64,000 nt of DNA from Candidatus Thermosaccharophagus tengchongensis (lineage in GTDB: Bacteria > Armatimonadota > Fervidibacteria > Fervidibacterales > Thermosaccharophagaceae): the NCBI GenBank assembly GCA_032161105.1, contig JAVHTD010000008.1. The stretch is one strand, 5' to 3'. The stretch's first letter is position 1; each line of letters starts with the position of its first letter. The position numbers are program-made. This document shows, piece after piece, positions 36,001-48,000 of this stretch.

Positions 36001-39000
36001 TCGTTGATAACGCATGGTCGGATGTAGATGTGCAGTTGAAGCGCCGCCACGACTTGATCCCGAACATCATTGAGGCTGTGAAGGGCTACATGAGTTATGA
36101 GCGGGCAACCCTTGAGAGGGTTGTGCAAGCACGCGGTCAGGCAATATCATCCTCAACGCCTGATCAAAGGGCGCAAGCTGAGGGCTTGCTCACGGCAGCA
36201 TTGAGGCAATTATTTGCGCTCGCCGAAGCATACCCCGACTTGAAAGCCAACCAAAGTTTCCTTGACCTGCAGGCGCAGCTCTCGGAGATTGAGGAGCAAA
36301 TTCAACTTGCACGCCGATACTACAATGCCGTTGTGCGAGATTACAACACCGCAACTCGCACCTTCCCAAGTAACATAGTTGCGGCTCTGTTCGGTTTCAG
36401 AGAGCGGCGCTTCTTTGAATTGCCCGATGTGCACGAGCGCGAGGTGCCTCAGGTGCGCTTTTGATGGTTGGCGGAGCTGCGCAGCGTGGGCTGCAGCGTT
36501 TTTGAGTCAGACTCGCTTTTGAGGTGAGTGCAATGGATGTTGCGGTGAGCGGTAAAGTGAGCAGCGTGAATTCAATTTCCGTTGGATGGCTCTTTCGCGC
36601 GTGGTTATGTGTCCTTCTTCAAGTTGGCAGTGCATCAATCCGATGCAGCGGCTGGGAGATTGAGAGGTTCATCACCGATGTAATGGTGCACGATGATGCG
36701 CACATAACTGTAACCGAGCGGTTGAAGGTTGACTTCGGCGGCGAGTTGCGCCATGGCATCTTCAGGACAATACCATACCGCTATAAGCGCCATTTGAAGT
36801 TGCCCATGGGAAGCACGATGCCGCTACTCTACAACCTTCGCATTAAAGTCCGCCATGTGACCGATGGCTTCGGCAGAGGGTTAAAATATCGCGTCTCACG
36901 CAAGAACGGTTACATTGAGATACGGATTGGCGATCCAAAAGTGGTTGTGAGCGGCATTCAGGATTATGTCATCACATACGATGTTTGGCGCGCCCTCGTC
37001 AAGCTGCCGGCACATGCAGCGAGCGTTATGCGGCGTAAGTGGGAAGGAAGTCTTAGTGTTGTTGAACTCTATTGGAATGCCACCGGGAATGAGTGGCGTG
37101 TCCCAATAGGTGAGGCAATTGCGAATGTGATGTTGCCCAACGGCGTTGACGGGCTTGATGAGCGCTCAGTGATGGTGGCATTTTACACTGGACCTTACGG
37201 CTCAGCGGAGCACAAGGGATGGGTGCGGCGTTCCAAGGACTGCATCTCATTTGGGACGGACAGGTTGGAGCCGGGATGTGGATTAACAATTTCCGTCGGC
37301 ATGCCAGTTGATGCATTCTCATTTCCAAGCGCTGTTCAGGAATTGATCTGGGCGCTTCTGGATAACTGGCATTTGGTGGTTGCTTTACTTGCGCCATTGA
37401 TTGCGCTCATCTGCATGCTCACGATGTGGTATCGTTTTGGGCGTGACCCATATTCACACCTCCCCGTAGTTGTGCAGTATGAGCCACCGAAGGACCTGAC
37501 CCCGGCGGAAGCTGGCACATTGGTTGATGAGCGCGCTGATGTGGATGACATTACTGCGACAGTCATTGATTTGGCTGCGAGGGGTTACATCAGGATCCGA
37601 GAACTCAAGACGACCAAGTTCCTCTTCCTCGCAGACAAGGATTATGAGTTTACGCTGCTGAAGCCGCTTGCAGACATGTCAGTTCGGGGGGAAAGCAAGG
37701 GCGCAAAAGGGAGACCCTCAAGTGGAGTTGAGAGGCTGGATGCCGAAGCTGAGGCGAGAGCTGAAGCCTTTCACGGCGTCGGTGATGAGGCGCTTGAGAG
37801 GCATGAATATCTCATGCTCGTTGGGATGTTTGAGAGTGGTGACAGAGTTCTGCTCTCGCAATTGCGCAACAAGTTCTATCGCCACCTACCCGGCATTCGG
37901 GATGCGCTTTATAGGACGCTCTCCAAGCACAAGCGGTTGTTTTATGGCGACCCTGACGAAGTGCGGAATCGCTACCGATGCATCGGAATTATCGGAGCTG
38001 CAGCGCTCTGCGGCGTTGTTTTTGCCCTCTCGCAGTTACTTAATGTGGACTTCGCGTCAATGCTTGTAGCTATGTTTGGCGTCTCAAGCAGCGGTGCGGT
38101 CGTTTGGCTCCTTGCGCCGCTCATGCCCAGAAAAACTTCTCTCGGTGTTGAGGCGTTGCGATACATACTCGGATTTAAGGAGTTCATCATGCGCGCCGAG
38201 AAAGACAGACTTGAAAGGATGGCATCTGAAGACCCGACGTTGTTCGGGCGCATACTGCCGTATGCCGTTGTGCTCGGTGTGGTGGATGAGTGGGCTGAGA
38301 AAATGAGGGACATAATTCGTCATCCACCGGAATGGTATGAGAGCAGCGACTATTATGCCGGTGGGTTCAGTTCAACCCGATTTATTCACGACATTGGGCA
38401 TGCAATGCGAACGATGGGCAGCACTTTCACATCGGCTCCTCGTGAAGTTAGTGGAGGCGGTTTTGGTGGCGGTGGCGGTGGAGCTTGGTGAACATGTGCG
38501 AACGGTCACCAAATGTGTGCGATGGTGAGCGTTATGCGGCATCGGTGGGAAGAAGAACTTCGCGTTGAGGTGAAAGCGCCAGTCGTTGATTTTGAGCAGC
38601 ACAATGAAGAGGTAAAGCGCGTTTGGGAAGCTTACCGCATGAGGAAGCCAATCAGGGTGCCGATGATAATTGGCACAAATGTGCGCTACACGATGCATCG
38701 CAAAGGCGCAAATCCATCCGGCATAACTTTTGAACGCATGTTTTCCGACCCTGAGGCGATGCTGCGAAGGCAGCTTGAACACGAATGGTTTATGCGCCAC
38801 TTCATCACCCAAGATGCCGAGATGGGCTTGCCAAAGGATGGTTGGCATGTCGGCGTTCACTTCCAAAATGTTTACGAGGCAGCTTGGCTTGGGTGTGAGA
38901 TTGTGTTCCTTGAGGGGCAAGTGCCGGATACAAAGCCGATGCTCCCCGATGACGACCGCAAAAATATGCTCTTTGATTTGGGGATGCCAGACCCGTTCAC

Positions 39001-45000: not shown

Positions 45001-48000
45001 TTGCCGGGACAAGGATTCGCAGGGCTGTCAGGAATGGTGCAACCCTGATTGTTGCAGACCCGAGGAAGATTGAGCTTTGCAACCGTGCGCACATTTGGCT
45101 TCAACATTATCCCGGAAGTGATGTGGCTCTCATCATGGGCATGGCGAGGGTCATCTATGAGCAAGGGCTGCACGATGAGGAATTCATTCGCGAGCGGTGC
45201 GAGAATTTTGAGGCGTTCGTTGAGTCGTTGAAGCAGTTTGAGCTCGGATTTGTGGAGGAGGTCACGGGAGTCCCGAGGGAGAAGATAATTCAAGCGGCAA
45301 CCCTCTACGCCACAAGGAAGCCATCTCTCATCATCTACTCACTCGGTATAACCGAGCATTCGCATGGGACTGAAAATGTGCTTGCGCTCGCAAACTTGGC
45401 TATGCTCACCGGCAATGTTGGAAAGCCATACGCCGGTGTGATGCCGATGCGTGGTCAGAACAATGTTCAAGGAGCATGCGATATGGGTTGCATGCCAGCA
45501 GCGCTGCCCGGCTATCAGCCGTTGACGGATGATAATGTGCGGGGGAAATTTGAGGATGCTTGGGGATGCAAGTTGAGCGACAAGCCCGGGTTGACGCTCG
45601 TTGAGATGTTACGGGGGGCATTAAGCGGCACGGTGAAGGCGTTTTACATTGTCGGCATGGATGTAGCATATAGCATGCCGAACGCAGCCATTGTTTGGGA
45701 AGCGCTTAGAAGAGCTGAGTTCGTCGTTGTGCAGGATATCTTCATGACTGGCACAGCCGAGTTTGCTCATGTCATCCTTCCGGGGGCGAGCTTCGCTGAG
45801 AAGGATGGCACATTCGTCAACCTTGAAAGGCGAGTTCAGCTCATCAGGAAGGCGATTGAGCCAGTTGGCGATGCCCGTCCCGACTGGTGGATAACATGCG
45901 AGATAGCAAAGCGCATGGGCGCAAGTGGATTTGATTATTCACACCCGTCAGAGGTGATGGACGAGATAGCGAAGTTGACGCCATCGTTTGCCGGGATATC
46001 GTTTGAGCGGCTTGAGAAGGGCGGAATACAGTGGCCGTGCACATCGTATGACCATCCGGGCACATTGAGATTGCATACCGAGACATTCAGCACGCCGACT
46101 GGCAAGGGGCGTTTCTCACCGCTGAAATACAGACCGCCGGCTGAATCGCCAGATGATGAATACCCGCTCATCCTGACCACGGGAAGAAGCCTTTACCACT
46201 TCCACCTTGCGATGACGAGGCGAGTCAAAGGCTTAGTGGCTCTTCACCCCGAGGAACGGATATGGCTAAACCCGCATGATGCACGCAAGTTGGGCATATC
46301 TGATGGCGACAGGGTTAAAGTCATCTCAAGGCGCGGCGAAGTTTTGACGAGGGCGAAGGTGACCGAGGAGGTGGCTCCGGGAACAGCGTTCATGACATTT
46401 CACTTTTATGAGACTCCCACGAATCTCCTTACGGGCGATGCATTATGCCCCATCGCGAAGACGCCAGAATTTAAAGTGACGGCAGTGAGGGTTGAAAAGG
46501 TCTGAAGAGTTGCCGCTGGTAAAGCCGGCGTGCAAGATTTAAGAGTAAGGCAGCCCGAGCTTTGTGCGCAGGGGATGACATTGTGCCGTTGTGGTTTACA
46601 TAAGGGGTGATACAAGCATGCTTAGCGCTATCAAGGGGCGATGTTTCCCCATGTGGCTGTCATGCGTGATGCTCGCATGTGTGGCAGTTTGGTCTGCGTC
46701 CCCGCAGTCTGAGCAGGTCGGCAAGCAAAGCGGCATTGTGTTGCGTTACAAGAGCAGGGTGGGAGATTTGATGCGTTATAGGTCATGGTTTCGCATGCGC
46801 GCTATTGGGGTGAGCGATGGGGAGACTAAGTTGCGCACAACTTTTAGCTATGAGGCGATATACGCCCATGCGGTGAGTTCGGTCTCACCAGATGGGACAT
46901 TTGAGATGGAGACCACAAGGGAGTCTGGAAAAGTGCAGCGCGATGGTCGTGAGGAAGATTTGAGCGGGAAGCCATACAAGCGCATTGTGAGAATGAATGA
47001 CAGGGGCAAAGTGCTTGAGGAAAGGGTTGTTGAGGGCGAGGAGCGCGAGGACGAAAGTAAATTTGCCGACCCAATAGTGCTGATGGATGAAGTCCACTCA
47101 AGGGCTGTCCAGAACATAGCTTTTCCTGAGGGCGCTGTGAACAAAGGGACGGAGTGGACGACAGCATTAACGGAGCGCATTGCTAACTCGGTTGTGAACA
47201 TAACCATCAAGTCAAAGGTGGTTGACTTCGTTGAGCTTGATGGGCACAAGTGCGCTGTCATTGAATCGGAAATAAGCGCCCCTGTGGACATGTCGGTGAG
47301 GGTTGGCGAGTTTGACATAAAGCTTGATGGCGAGTTTAAGGCGTGGACAACGCTCCACTTTGATTACGAGAGGGGTATTGAAGTGCTTTCAGAGGACCAA
47401 ATTCGCGCTGTCATCAACCAAACAGCGCGAGCACAAGGCGGGAGCGTGAACTTACAATTCAAAGTGGCGGCAAATGCAAAATCAGTGCTGCTCAGTTATA
47501 GGGCAGCCGGCAAGTAAGCTTTTTGAAAACCATCATTTGGCTTCCGGGAAAACTATTCGGGCACATCTTGAAAAGGAGGTTGCAAACTAATGGGTGAACT
47601 CAGGGTGGGCACATCTGGCTACCAGTATGACGATTGGGTCGGATACTTCTATCCACAGGGTTTGCCGAAGCGTGAGTGGCTCAACTTCTACGCACGCCAC
47701 TTCAACACGGTTGAAGTGAATAGCTCGTTTTACACGATGCTCCCACCATCAACGACGGCTCGGCTGGCGAAAAAAGTTCCCGATGGATTTGACTTTGTCA
47801 TAAAGGCTCACAGGTCTTTCACGCATGACAGGAATGCCGATGAAGCTATGGTGCAAGATTTTCATGAAATGCTCAAGCCGTTAGCTGAGTCGGGCAAGCT
47901 TGGATGTGTGTTGCTCCAATTCCCGTGGGAGTTCAGATACGACCAATCCAATCGCGATTACCTGATAAGCGTTTGTCACGCCCTCGCCGATTACCCATTG

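Follow-up and report, generated by a model that had tools for sequence, protein, structure and literature searches.

Predicted cytoplasmic formate dehydrogenase and candidate genes for every Wood-Ljungdahl step in Candidatus Thermosaccharophagus tengchongensis

The explanation that best accounts for our data as a whole, and that we consider probable, is that Candidatus Thermosaccharophagus tengchongensis encodes a genuine formate dehydrogenase (FDH) composed of a NuoE-like subunit, a flavoprotein (F2), and FdhA, that this enzyme would feed the Wood-Ljungdahl pathway (WLP), that a fused ADP-forming acyl-CoA synthetase (ACD) would provide the route to acetate, that a second flavoprotein (F1) would be accessory, and that the published absence of these enzymes is artefactual. 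The FDH genes and their upstream neighbors lie in the window, the whole 64,000-nt stretch of contig JAVHTD010000008.1 (assembly GCA_032161105.1) that was analysed, as follows:

38513-39745, plus strand: URO-D superfamily / MtaA-CmuA-like protein, 410 aa, abutting F1
39742-41568, plus strand: F1, NuoF-like BfuB-type flavoprotein, 608 aa, ending in a 2x[4Fe-4S] ferredoxin domain
41598-42089, plus strand: NuoE-like [2Fe-2S] subunit, 163 aa, its 3' end sharing 4 nt with the start of F2
42086-43771, plus strand: F2, NuoF-like flavoprotein, 561 aa, predicted FMN/NAD(P)H subunit of the conserved FDH triad
43842-46505, plus strand: FdhA, 887 aa, internal stops absent

The genome-wide survey's note had reported a full-length Cys-type FDH alpha subunit at this locus, and the intact reading frame bears this out. 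FdhA scores 862.4 bits in the NCBIfam profile search against TIGR01591 (cut-off 666.25), the value given in the survey, and its Pfam set is complete (Fer2_4, NADH-G_4Fe-4S_3, Fer4_Nqo3, Molybdop_Fe4S4, Molybdopterin, and Molydop_binding), with a NuoG-like Fe-S module fused at the N-terminus and Cys clusters at 34/45/48/61, 97/100/106, 148-158, 191-201, and 222/225/229/257. Among solved chains, 9wxb_B and 6tg9_A, both labelled 'formate dehydrogenase subunit alpha', come closest; they match residues 4-884 with 788-792 bits (E of about 1e-236). In the alignment with these two chains, CARLCH (Cys344, His345), which ends the motif NNVDNCARLCH at residues 335-345, lies opposite CARVCH, and PMRGQNNVQG (Arg537) lies opposite PLRGQNNVQG; all three active-site residues are retained. 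At the level of sequence, the product is a genuine cytoplasmic Cys-type Mo/W-bis-pyranopterin FDH alpha subunit.

The two genes directly upstream of FdhA encode its most likely partners. The NuoE-like protein matches Pfam 2Fe-2S_thioredx with 161.9 bits and the NuoE model NF005722 with 143 bits (cut-off 141), while its score against NF004638, 'formate dehydrogenase subunit gamma', is 135 bits and falls under the cut-off of 198. F2 contains the Pfam domains Complex1_51K, SLBB, and NADH_4Fe-4S and an N-terminal thioredoxin-like domain with four Cys. In the alignment F2 terminates shortly past the RC..GVC motif; no Fer4 domain was found in it by Pfam search, and the C-terminal 2x[4Fe-4S] domain is missing. 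NuoE-F2-FdhA shares the subunit plan of the soluble NAD+-dependent FdsGBA enzymes. Electrons would pass from NAD(P)H to the FMN of F2 and through five Fe-S clusters in the NuoG-like N-terminus of FdhA to the pterin site, where CO2 and formate would be interconverted. According to a passage in PMC11829005, the ferredoxin-reducing clusters B3/B4 sit in the C-terminal domain of BfuB, and PMC9304861 describes, in the section concerned, B2-B5 as missing from non-bifurcating homologues. Because F2 does not have this ferredoxin-reducing C-terminal domain, the core FDH most probably works as a simple NAD(P)H-linked enzyme rather than as an electron-bifurcating one.

The third gene, F1, raises the alternative of an electron-bifurcating or confurcating Fdh-Bfu, in which F1, NuoE, and FdhA would couple CO2 reduction to NAD(P)H and reduced ferredoxin. 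F1 does carry the domain that F2 lacks (two Fer4 at 555-607, in addition to Complex1_51K and NADH_4Fe-4S), and its top solved chains are 7t2r_B (777 bits), 7q4v_B (746 bits), and NfnB 9n5u_B (744 bits). Bifurcating-family chains are also nearest to the other two subunits, outscoring the FdsG and FdsB chains: 7t2r_C (158 bits) and 8a6t_C (154 bits) against FdsG 6tg9_G (94 bits) for the NuoE-like protein, and NfnB 9n5u_B (641 bits) against FdsB-type 6tg9_B (389 bits) for F2. In addition, a passage of PMC9304861 predicts type 1 Fdh-Bfu enzymes whose BfuA carries the pterin, and F1 stands directly 5' of NuoE-F2-FdhA both in the window and in Armatimonadota SKYB128. However, F1 orthologues (84-89% identity) are present in 4/4 genus genomes, and in two of them (G021 and G023) F1 is found alone, flanked by Lon-like and NlpC/P60 genes. 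The F2-type gene, which is the conserved partner, stands directly 5' of FdhA in both named Thermosaccharophagus MAGs. Three of the four Cys of F1 that would align with the N-terminal Cys of HydB are missing, and an orphan split NfnA/NfnC pair on contig C19 needs a BfuB, of which F1 is the sole one in the genome. We therefore regard a bifurcating FDH as unlikely. The three NuoE/NuoF-like genes listed in the survey ahead of the FDH are all present, but they do not form a single conserved unit; the conserved core is the triad NuoE-F2-FdhA. Membership of F1 in the FDH complex is uncertain, and it could be an accessory or shared subunit, possibly part of the C19 split Nfn-type transhydrogenase. The real start of F1 is probably Met22 (39805).

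The distribution of the FDH was compared among 24 genomes of the order, four from the genus of the window, among them the two MAGs named Ca. Thermosaccharophagus, and 20 from the sister family. FdhA orthologues (82-86% identity) occur in the three other genus genomes, and identities of 81-86% are found in loci titled Ca. Thermosaccharophagus yellowstonensis, Ca. T. gerlachensis, and Armatimonadota SKYB128. In the sister family, 11/20 genomes have only NuoG-like matches of 27-34% and 9/20 have no match. The TIGR01591 cut-off is exceeded in 4/24 genomes, all from the family of the window, in agreement with the survey's count of four genus genomes and no sister-family genome, and CdhC/acetyl-CoA synthase (ACS) occurs in exactly the same four. 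Since a single clade contains all four genomes, this co-occurrence represents one evolutionary event. Of 78 related loci, 48 have an E-like and an F-like gene next to FdhA, and 11 have Fhs, MetF, or AcsC/D/E genes no more than 8 kb from the FdhA homologue. One of these 11 is in a groundwater MAG of Armatimonadetes, where the genes run Fhs-FdhA-NuoE-NuoF; linkage of FdhA to WLP genes recurs in other phyla.

These observations bear on the reading that the FDH is inactive or stands outside the pathway, as an enzyme that detoxifies formate or generates NAD(P)H, or as an apo-protein in this strain. The apo-protein form of this reading arises because cofactor maturation genes are missing: an FdhD/FdsC-type sulfurtransferase (PF02634) was found in 0/4 genus genomes, MobA matches are weak and under the cut-off, and neither a Pfam search nor tblastn with the sister-species protein recovered MoeA from the genome of the window (97.4% complete, 44 contigs). 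MoeA is, however, present in the other three genus genomes and lies two genes 5' of the triad in both named Thermosaccharophagus MAGs, and MoaA and MoaC are present in 4/4. Together with an active site kept intact across species, the co-occurrence with ACS, and the repeated linkage to WLP genes, this makes an inactive or unrelated FDH highly improbable.

The genuine FDH would supply formate to formate-THF ligase, closing the methyl branch of a WLP that is complete at the genetic level. The other pathway steps named in the survey were all located: AcsD, CODH, ACS, AcsC, AcsE, and an AcsV/RACo-like gene on C9, Fhs and MetF/MetV on C30, and FolD on C15. The last step, from acetyl-CoA to acetate and ATP, would be catalysed by the following product:

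C6, 52737-54878, minus strand: fused ADP-forming acyl-CoA synthetase (ACD), 714 aa, TIGR02717 598-600 bits (cut-off 567)

This fused protein is found in 22/24 order genomes, as the survey had stated, and in 4/4 genus genomes, with identities of 83-90% among genus members and 60-66% against the proteins of the sister family. Because an intact FDH and an ATP-yielding acyl-CoA synthetase are both encoded, there is a candidate gene for every WLP step, and the CO2-to-acetate route is complete on paper.

Section 11 of PMC11535203 (2024) states that the family lacks FdhAB and AcdAB. The Supplementary Dataset 23 of that paper assigns K00123 = 2 and K01905 = 1 to each of the four Thermosaccharophagus species, with K05299, K00124, pta, ackA, and the AMP-forming Acs K01895 at 0. 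The K00123 count agrees with the two FDH-like loci that we find per genus genome. In the NCBI records of both named MAGs, FdhA is labelled 'hypothetical protein', while the IMG label for the same MAG sequence is 'formate dehydrogenase alpha subunit', a name that PGAP also gives the SKYB128 orthologue. For the ACD, a passage of PMC11535203 itself names the F. sacchari (sister family) protein AcdAB. Since the dataset counts both KOs and IMG and PGAP already name the relatives, the published absence reflects annotation and the way KEGG entries are defined; it is an artefact, not biology. The conflict with this paper raised in the survey thus holds for its text but is shallower than implied.

The second K00123 gene encodes the Fdh-like partner of a group 4b hydrogenase. 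Its active site is dead, without Cys/Sec, His, or Arg, and the cluster includes homologues of NADPH-type SHI beta/gamma, so the cluster is ruled out as a formate hydrogenlyase.

Three lifestyles may be drawn from this gene set. Both ACD and FDH belong to enzyme classes that can run in either direction. In one tentative reading, close to that of the survey, the organism would grow as a lithotrophic or formatotrophic (homo)acetogen on H2+CO2 or formate, with ATP via ACD and an ion gradient via the membrane-bound group 4 hydrogenase. A gene for each step including ACD, a [NiFe(Se)] hydrogenase on C30 that lies between Fhs and MetV/MetF and has a small subunit lacking a signal peptide, and, on C1, a group 4 hydrogenase that includes antiporter-like subunits are consistent with it, and the NfnA/NfnC-like pair with F1 could supply reduced ferredoxin. 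Terminal oxidases are absent according to a passage of PMC11535203, and PMC10290634 already proposes acetogenesis for other Armatimonadota. Against this, the evidence is gene presence only, FdhD was found in none of the four genus genomes and MoeA not in this assembly, and genome searches recovered no RnfD (as the survey had remarked of Rnf), [FeFe] hydrogenase, Pta, or AckA. The group 4b hydrogenase, to which the survey assigned part of the energy coupling, has a catalytically dead Fdh-like partner. The ACD is also only a putative acetate enzyme; its nearest solved relative is the 4-hydroxybutyrate-CoA ligase 8wzu_A (681 bits), and it scores 590 against the acetate-specific NF045494 (cut-off 1200).

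The WLP might equally serve as an electron sink (heterotrophic acetogenesis) or for acetyl-CoA assimilation in a sugar-fermenting anaerobe without lithotrophic growth, a possibility to which we give the same guarded weight. Reductant from glycolysis and pyruvate:ferredoxin oxidoreductase would then reduce CO2 to extra acetate. A 2-oxoacid:ferredoxin oxidoreductase is encoded, a sugar-type ABC transporter gene adjoins the ACD gene, the family is described in part of PMC11535203 as CAZyme-rich, and the absence of Rnf agrees with the 'heterotrophic acetogen' model that PMC10290634 proposes for Rnf-less Zipacnadia. However, the embedding of the uptake-type hydrogenase between Fhs and MetVF suggests that H2 may also feed the pathway. 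An oxidative WLP, resembling that of thermophilic syntrophic acetate oxidisers, would convert acetate (via reversible ACD) or sugar-derived acetyl-CoA to CO2, with formate or NAD(P)H from the FDH and H2 from the group 4 hydrogenase. The reversible enzymes, the H2-evolving-type group 4 hydrogenase, and acetate assimilation reported for the sister genus in a passage of PMC11535203 favor this direction, but the zero count of AMP-forming Acs in the four species and the want of support for a partner organism or for the direction make it decidedly unlikely.

The gene upstream of F1 was absent from the survey's note, in which the marked start, 38534, falls within the URO-D/MtaA-like reading frame. 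Its product matches Pfam URO-D with 94.6 bits and the NCBIfam MtaA/CmuA-type models with only 40-75 bits, far under their cut-offs. The protein has 0 matches in the remaining 77 of the 78 related loci; the gene adjoins F1 only in the window and in locus L011 (87% identity). It is a possible candidate for a corrinoid methyltransferase.

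The assembly of Candidatus Thermosaccharophagus tengchongensis (G000) comprises 2.74 Mb in 44 contigs and is 97.4% complete, and the window covers C8:1-64000. Seven closely spaced ORFs lie on the + strand at 35910-46505, and family searches (TIGR01591 for the last ORF) assign them as follows.

Closely spaced ORFs at 35910-46505
from 35910, + strand, the first two of the seven ORFs: LemA and DUF2207 proteins
38513-39745, + strand, URO-D/MtaA-like protein
39742-41568, + strand, F1, NuoF-like protein of 608 aa
41598-42089, + strand, E, NuoE-like protein of 163 aa
42086-43771, + strand, F2, NuoF-like protein of 561 aa
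43842-46505, + strand, FdhA, formate dehydrogenase (FDH) alpha subunit of 887 aa

FdhA scores 862.4 bits against the curated equivalog model TIGR01591 (cut-off 666.25), matching profile positions 2-672 of 672 and hence the whole catalytic domain, and a six-frame search of the genome with the same model gives 863.5 bits. Its domain series is complete (Fer2_4, NADH-G_4Fe-4S_3, Fer4_Nqo3, Molybdop_Fe4S4, Molybdopterin, and Molydop_binding). The nearest solved chains are the alpha chains 9wxb_B and 6tg9_A (788-792 bits, residues 4-884 aligned); 9wxb and 6tg9/6tga, like 6vw7, are entries for soluble FdsABG formate dehydrogenases, from Rhodobacter and Cupriavidus. The metal-ligand Cys or Sec, the adjoining His, and a conserved Arg have established catalytic roles in FDH alpha subunits. 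The CARLCH (Cys344, His345) and PMRGQNNVQG (Arg537) motifs of FdhA correspond to CARVCH and PLRGQNNVQG in both solved chains, and FdhA is a Cys-type enzyme because its gene has no in-frame stop. A second FDH-like gene of the genome (C1:97376-99313, 645 aa) served as a negative control for this active-site test, and in its product the catalytic Cys/Sec, His, and Arg are exchanged for Arg, Leu, and Val, respectively. By its score and active-site residues FdhA is thus identified as a predicted Mo/W-bis-pyranopterin formate dehydrogenase alpha subunit, and the genome-wide survey's note had described the gene correctly.

We compared the surroundings of the gene by tblastn of the window proteins against 78 related loci that carry FdhA homologues. 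An E-like and an F-like gene stand beside FdhA in 48 of them, while two F-like genes flanking one E gene, together with the URO-D-like gene, occur only in the Armatimonadota MAG SKYB128 (L011). The two named sister MAGs, Ca. T. yellowstonensis and Ca. T. gerlachensis, show the order MoeA, DUF72, NuoE, NuoF, FdhA. From these neighbor patterns we infer that the conserved enzyme is the triad E-F2-FdhA, whose genes follow one another in this order with spacings of 4 nt and 70 nt. A scan of 35500-49500 returned 8 promoter-like and 15 terminator-like sites, compared with a shuffled expectation of 8.9 and 13.4, respectively, and does not define an operon. Four metatranscriptome runs of the same studies, searched with 35800-49100 at 93% likeness, yielded 0, 0, 2, and 0 reads or contigs; only 3-5% of three raw-read runs was sampled, so these counts are uninformative either way.

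The triad resembles the soluble NAD+-dependent FdsABG enzymes in having a NuoG-like Fe-S N-terminus fused to a Mo-pterin domain, a Cys-type site, and NuoF- and NuoE-like partners encoded alongside the alpha subunit. It differs from them in that F2 and E score 641 and 158 bits to bifurcating-family chains compared with 389-436 and 94 bits to FdsB and FdsG, in the additional BfuB-like gene (F1) upstream, and in that no FdsC/FdhD or FdsD gene was found. FdhA is also 48.5% identical, by the figure of the genome-wide survey, to the NADP-dependent FDH of Moorella thermoacetica, a cytoplasmic enzyme through which that thermophile supplies its methyl branch. The two differ in that the Moorella protein is a selenoprotein and FdhA has Cys. 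A third relative is the Type 1 Fdh-Bfu class of FDH, for which parts of PMC9304861 predict electron bifurcation and place the pterin in BfuA. The likeness to this class, as it is presented there, lies in FdhA as a BfuA with a pterin domain, in a NuoE-like BfuC, and in F1 with the BfuB C-terminal 2x[4Fe-4S] domain. In contrast to it, the conserved flavoprotein here is F2, which has no such C-terminal domain, and F1 is unsyntenic in two of the four species and has lost N-terminal cluster ligands.

F1 and F2 complement each other in domain and Cys content. The N-terminal thioredoxin-like domain of F2 retains four Cys, and the protein ends directly past the RC..GVC motif, and neither Pfam nor the alignment reveals a C-terminal 2x[4Fe-4S] or Fer4 domain in it. 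F1 has the C-terminal 2x[4Fe-4S] domain, and of the four N-terminal Cys positions aligned with those of HydB (7t2r_B), three have lost their Cys in F1. Passages of PMC11829005 place the minimal bifurcation site at [B1-FMN-C1] and let low-potential electrons exit through B3/B4 in the BfuB C-terminal domain, and non-bifurcating homologues without B2-B5 are described in parts of PMC9304861. Judged by these portions of the two papers, the C-terminal domain that holds the two ferredoxin-reducing [4Fe-4S] clusters of BfuB is absent from F2 and present in F1, while a BfuC with the C1 [2Fe-2S] cluster adjoining BfuB is represented by the NuoE-like gene between F1 and F2. Because F2 has no C-terminal domain, the triad E-F2-FdhA would seem to be a simple NAD(P)H-linked FDH. 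E and F2 are nonetheless nearer in sequence to bifurcating-family chains than to FdsG and FdsB, and the best solved matches of E are HydC and NfnC chains. In SKYB128 the F2 orthologue does carry a C-terminal 2x[4Fe-4S] domain, which could be read as a sign that F2 is normally bifurcating. We rejected this reading, since the tail (L011:7601-7981) is almost letter-identical to that of the same MAG's own F1 (L011:3858-5621), which indicates a probable gene conversion between paralogues or an assembly chimera or misassembly.

F1 orthologues (84-89%) are present in all four genomes of the genus, and in two of them (G021 and G023) the gene is on its own, flanked by genes for a Lon-like protease and an NlpC/P60 protein. 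No third NuoF-like gene was found in G000. A second NuoE-like gene lies on C19 and, in a pair that spans C19:43581-46322 (L108:7582-10323, - strand), adjoins the gene of a 740-aa protein that combines a NuoG-type N-terminus with a GltD/NfnL-type domain (best solved matches 9bov_A, 500 bits, and NfnA 9n5u_A, 481 bits). This pair looks like a split Nfn-type transhydrogenase, and there is no BfuB gene beside it. Because of the stand-alone orthologues, the lack of a third NuoF-like gene in G000, and the lack of a BfuB beside the C19 pair, F1 may well supply the B subunit that this transhydrogenase lacks. Additionally or instead, F1 could dock on the FDH module as a candidate member of that complex.

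We next consider the ADP-forming acyl-CoA synthetase (ACD). One G000 protein exceeds the TIGR02717 cut-off (598.2 versus 567.15 bits), a fused ACD of 714 aa at C6:52737-54878. Its alpha part (9-463) matches 4xyl_A, its beta (ATP-grasp) part (484-711) matches 4xyl_B, and the histidine of its SHTGAL motif, presumably the phosphohistidine, is kept. The nearest solved relative is the 4-hydroxybutyrate-CoA ligase [ADP-forming] 8wzu_A (681 bits), which shares the fused alpha-beta architecture over residues 14-709, and the NDP-forming acetyl-CoA synthetase chains come behind it (381 and 205 bits). The substrate-specific NCBIfam models, acetate-specific as well as hydroxyacid-specific, all score ACD below their cut-offs (NF045494, 590/1200; NF045493, 808/1300; NF045492, 557/1300). 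Acetate is therefore a putative substrate, the top solved match being an enzyme for 4-hydroxybutyrate. The protein occurs in 22 of the 24 genomes of the order, with 83-90% identity within the genus and 60-66% in the sister family Fervidibacteraceae, whose orthologues include the F. sacchari protein called AcdAB in the text of PMC11535203 consulted; TIGR02717 is exceeded in 21 of the 24.

FdhA orthologues at 82-86% are found in the three other genomes of the genus, while 11 of the 20 sister-family genomes contain just NuoG-like matches of 27-34% and the remaining nine none. TIGR01591 is exceeded in 4 of the 24 genomes, all in the family of the window, and CdhC, the acetyl-CoA synthase (ACS), occurs in the same four, a strict co-occurrence. 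The nearest loci are those of SKYB128 (86%), Ca. T. yellowstonensis (83%), and Ca. T. gerlachensis (81%), followed by an uncultured-bacterium MAG (68%), a groundwater Armatimonadetes MAG (66%), and Chloroflexi, Dehalococcoidia, Desulfobacterales, and others (42-62%). One sister-family genome has a contig-truncated FDH-alpha-like fragment (G014:C202:4831-6570) that scores 364 bits, below the cut-off. Fhs, MetF, or AcsC/D/E is encoded within 8 kb of the FdhA homologue in 11 of the 78 related loci, and MoeA-like neighbors are seen in 24. The locus of the groundwater MAG (L014; JACQGM010000383.1, 44-8207) has AcsD, an AcsE-like stretch, and Fhs immediately ahead of the 66%-identical FdhA, with NuoE and NuoF behind it; here what is by sequence the same FDH clade is physically linked to Wood-Ljungdahl genes in another Armatimonadota lineage.

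These data stand against section 11 of PMC11535203, in which the Thermosaccharophagaceae MAGs 'lacked formate dehydrogenase (FdhAB)' and also AcdAB or Pta plus AckA. In the portion of Supplementary Dataset 23 of that paper searched by KO, each of the four Thermosaccharophagus species has K00123 = 2 and K01905 = 1, while K05299, K00124, K00625, K00925, and K01895 are all 0; K00123 is 0 in nine Fervidibacteraceae, and K15022 and K22224 were not found in that portion. A table in the same source lists K05299 = 1 and K00124 = 1 for one Fervidibacter species. Our searches recover two FDH-like loci per genus genome, matching K00123 = 2. The FdhA records of the two named MAGs at NCBI (MFA4045141.1 and MFA4016288.1) are labeled 'hypothetical protein', whereas the identical sequence is a 'formate dehydrogenase alpha subunit' in IMG, and for the SKYB128 orthologue PGAP gives 'formate dehydrogenase subunit alpha'; deposition as 'hypothetical protein' is a likely reason that FdhA was overlooked. 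Given the KO counts and these discordant labels, the published absence is an artefact of KEGG-module definitions and weak annotation, not a real absence. The genome-wide survey's note was right that the reconstruction missed both enzymes, its genome counts for them hold as well, and the correction can be drawn from the paper's supplement and from public annotation. In the literature searched, we found no paper that revisits the reported absence of FDH and ACD in Thermosaccharophagus. For this uncultured family of hot springs, the published reconstruction of metabolism is thereby corrected. The case is also a caution, in that KEGG definitions (K05299/K15022, K00124) and 'hypothetical protein' labels masked genes counted in the supplement of the same paper.

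With FDH and ACD in place, the Wood-Ljungdahl pathway is genetically complete (FDH, Fhs, FolD, MetF/MetV, AcsA-E, and AcsV). AcsD, CODH, ACS, AcsC, AcsE, and CooC-like and AcsV-like proteins are encoded in a row on C9, FolD on C15, and Fhs, MetF, and a MetV-type DUF5981 protein on C30; G000 also has one alpha subunit of 2-oxoacid:ferredoxin oxidoreductase. The C30 row (L008:3265-10925, - strand) reads Fhs, a 255-aa protein, the small and large subunits of a [NiFe(Se)] hydrogenase, a maturation protease, MetV (DUF5981), and MetF. The ORF of the hydrogenase small subunit opens at the mature N-terminus and is preceded by in-frame stops, and for this reason the subunit has no twin-arginine signal. 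The C30 hydrogenase looks like a cytoplasmic enzyme tied to the methyl branch, although it is classed as a respiratory group 1a enzyme in the part of PMC11535203 that treats it.

The second FDH-like gene on C1 immediately precedes a group 4 [NiFe] hydrogenase cluster that encodes three antiporter-like subunits along with NAD(P)H subunits resembling SHI beta/gamma (gene and cluster together C1:97376-113330; L098:17377-19314 and L099:20-13330), in which the large-subunit ORF has a start only at about profile position 73. We rejected this gene as the FDH of a formate hydrogenlyase, since its active-site residues are replaced, consistent with the class of dead Fdh-like partners with NADPH-type subunits already described in parts of PMC13582414. 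Because of this dead partner and the NADPH-type subunits, the C1 membrane hydrogenase is probably not a formate hydrogenlyase.

Cofactor supply was examined across the genus. MoaA and MoaC are encoded in all four genomes and MoeA in three, the exception being the 97.4%-complete G000 assembly, where it was not found; MobA has matches only below the cut-off, and FdhD was found in none of the four. Directly 3' of FdhA, an ORF of 308 aa (46591-47517, + strand) belongs to no Pfam or NCBIfam family and has a 74% identical counterpart in SKYB128 only. It was rejected as a hidden FdhD, as it has no match in either database and its Atlas features point to DUF6263-like hypothetical proteins.

From the complete gene set, reductive acetyl-CoA metabolism is plausible. 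Searches of G000 for acetate kinase, phosphotransacetylase, RnfD, and [FeFe] hydrogenase found none of them. Of the energy-coupling modules known from acetogens, Rnf or a ferredoxin-dependent Ech with a ferredoxin-reducing hydrogenase, none was seen in these searches, which did not extend to Hdr/Mvh-type genes; the group 4 cluster has NADPH-type SHI beta/gamma homologues and a dead Fdh-like subunit. The survey had read the organism as a candidate hyperthermophilic (homo)acetogen, and of this reading the complete Wood-Ljungdahl gene set stands, while the sequence does not distinguish lithotrophic acetogenesis from oxidative operation or from an electron sink in sugar fermentation. A fuller but improbable scheme would make Thermosaccharophagus a thermophilic Rnf-free acetogen with an unusual way of conserving energy. 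The group 4b [NiFeSe] hydrogenase with SHI-type NADPH subunits would act as an ion-pumping H2:NADP+ oxidoreductase, F1 would be common to the split NfnA/NfnC and to FdhA/NuoE and make reduced ferredoxin, the signal-peptide-less [NiFe(Se)] hydrogenase between Fhs and MetVF would feed the methyl branch, and the archaeal-type ACD would make ATP.

FDH and ACD are ordinary members of known enzyme families, and acetogenesis in Armatimonadota has been proposed earlier. Parts of PMC10290634 present the marine-sediment classes Hebobacteria and Zipacnadia as predicted acetogens with the Wood-Ljungdahl pathway, AcdAB or Pta/AckA, and group 4b and 1a hydrogenases, and read their Rnf-less members as heterotrophic acetogens. 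Thermosaccharophagus differs from those lineages in coming from hot springs and in belonging to the class Fervidibacteria, which the corresponding passage of the 2024 paper (PMC11535203) explicitly sets apart from both. Since the enzyme types are ordinary and acetogenic Armatimonadota had already been proposed, the main gain is for the Thermosaccharophagus lineage. Two side leads are the possibly shared BfuB flavoprotein F1 and the hydrogenase whose genes stand between Fhs and MetVF. For cultivation, H2/CO2, formate, and sugars together with CO2 are candidate substrates for anaerobic growth. The gene of a multihaem cytochrome c of 347 aa (33673-34716, + strand) precedes the FDH region by a few genes. 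The protein shows Pfam Cytochrome_C554, MtrC/MtrF-like, and NapC/NirT matches and paired CXXCH motifs, a hint that respiration may use an electron acceptor besides CO2.
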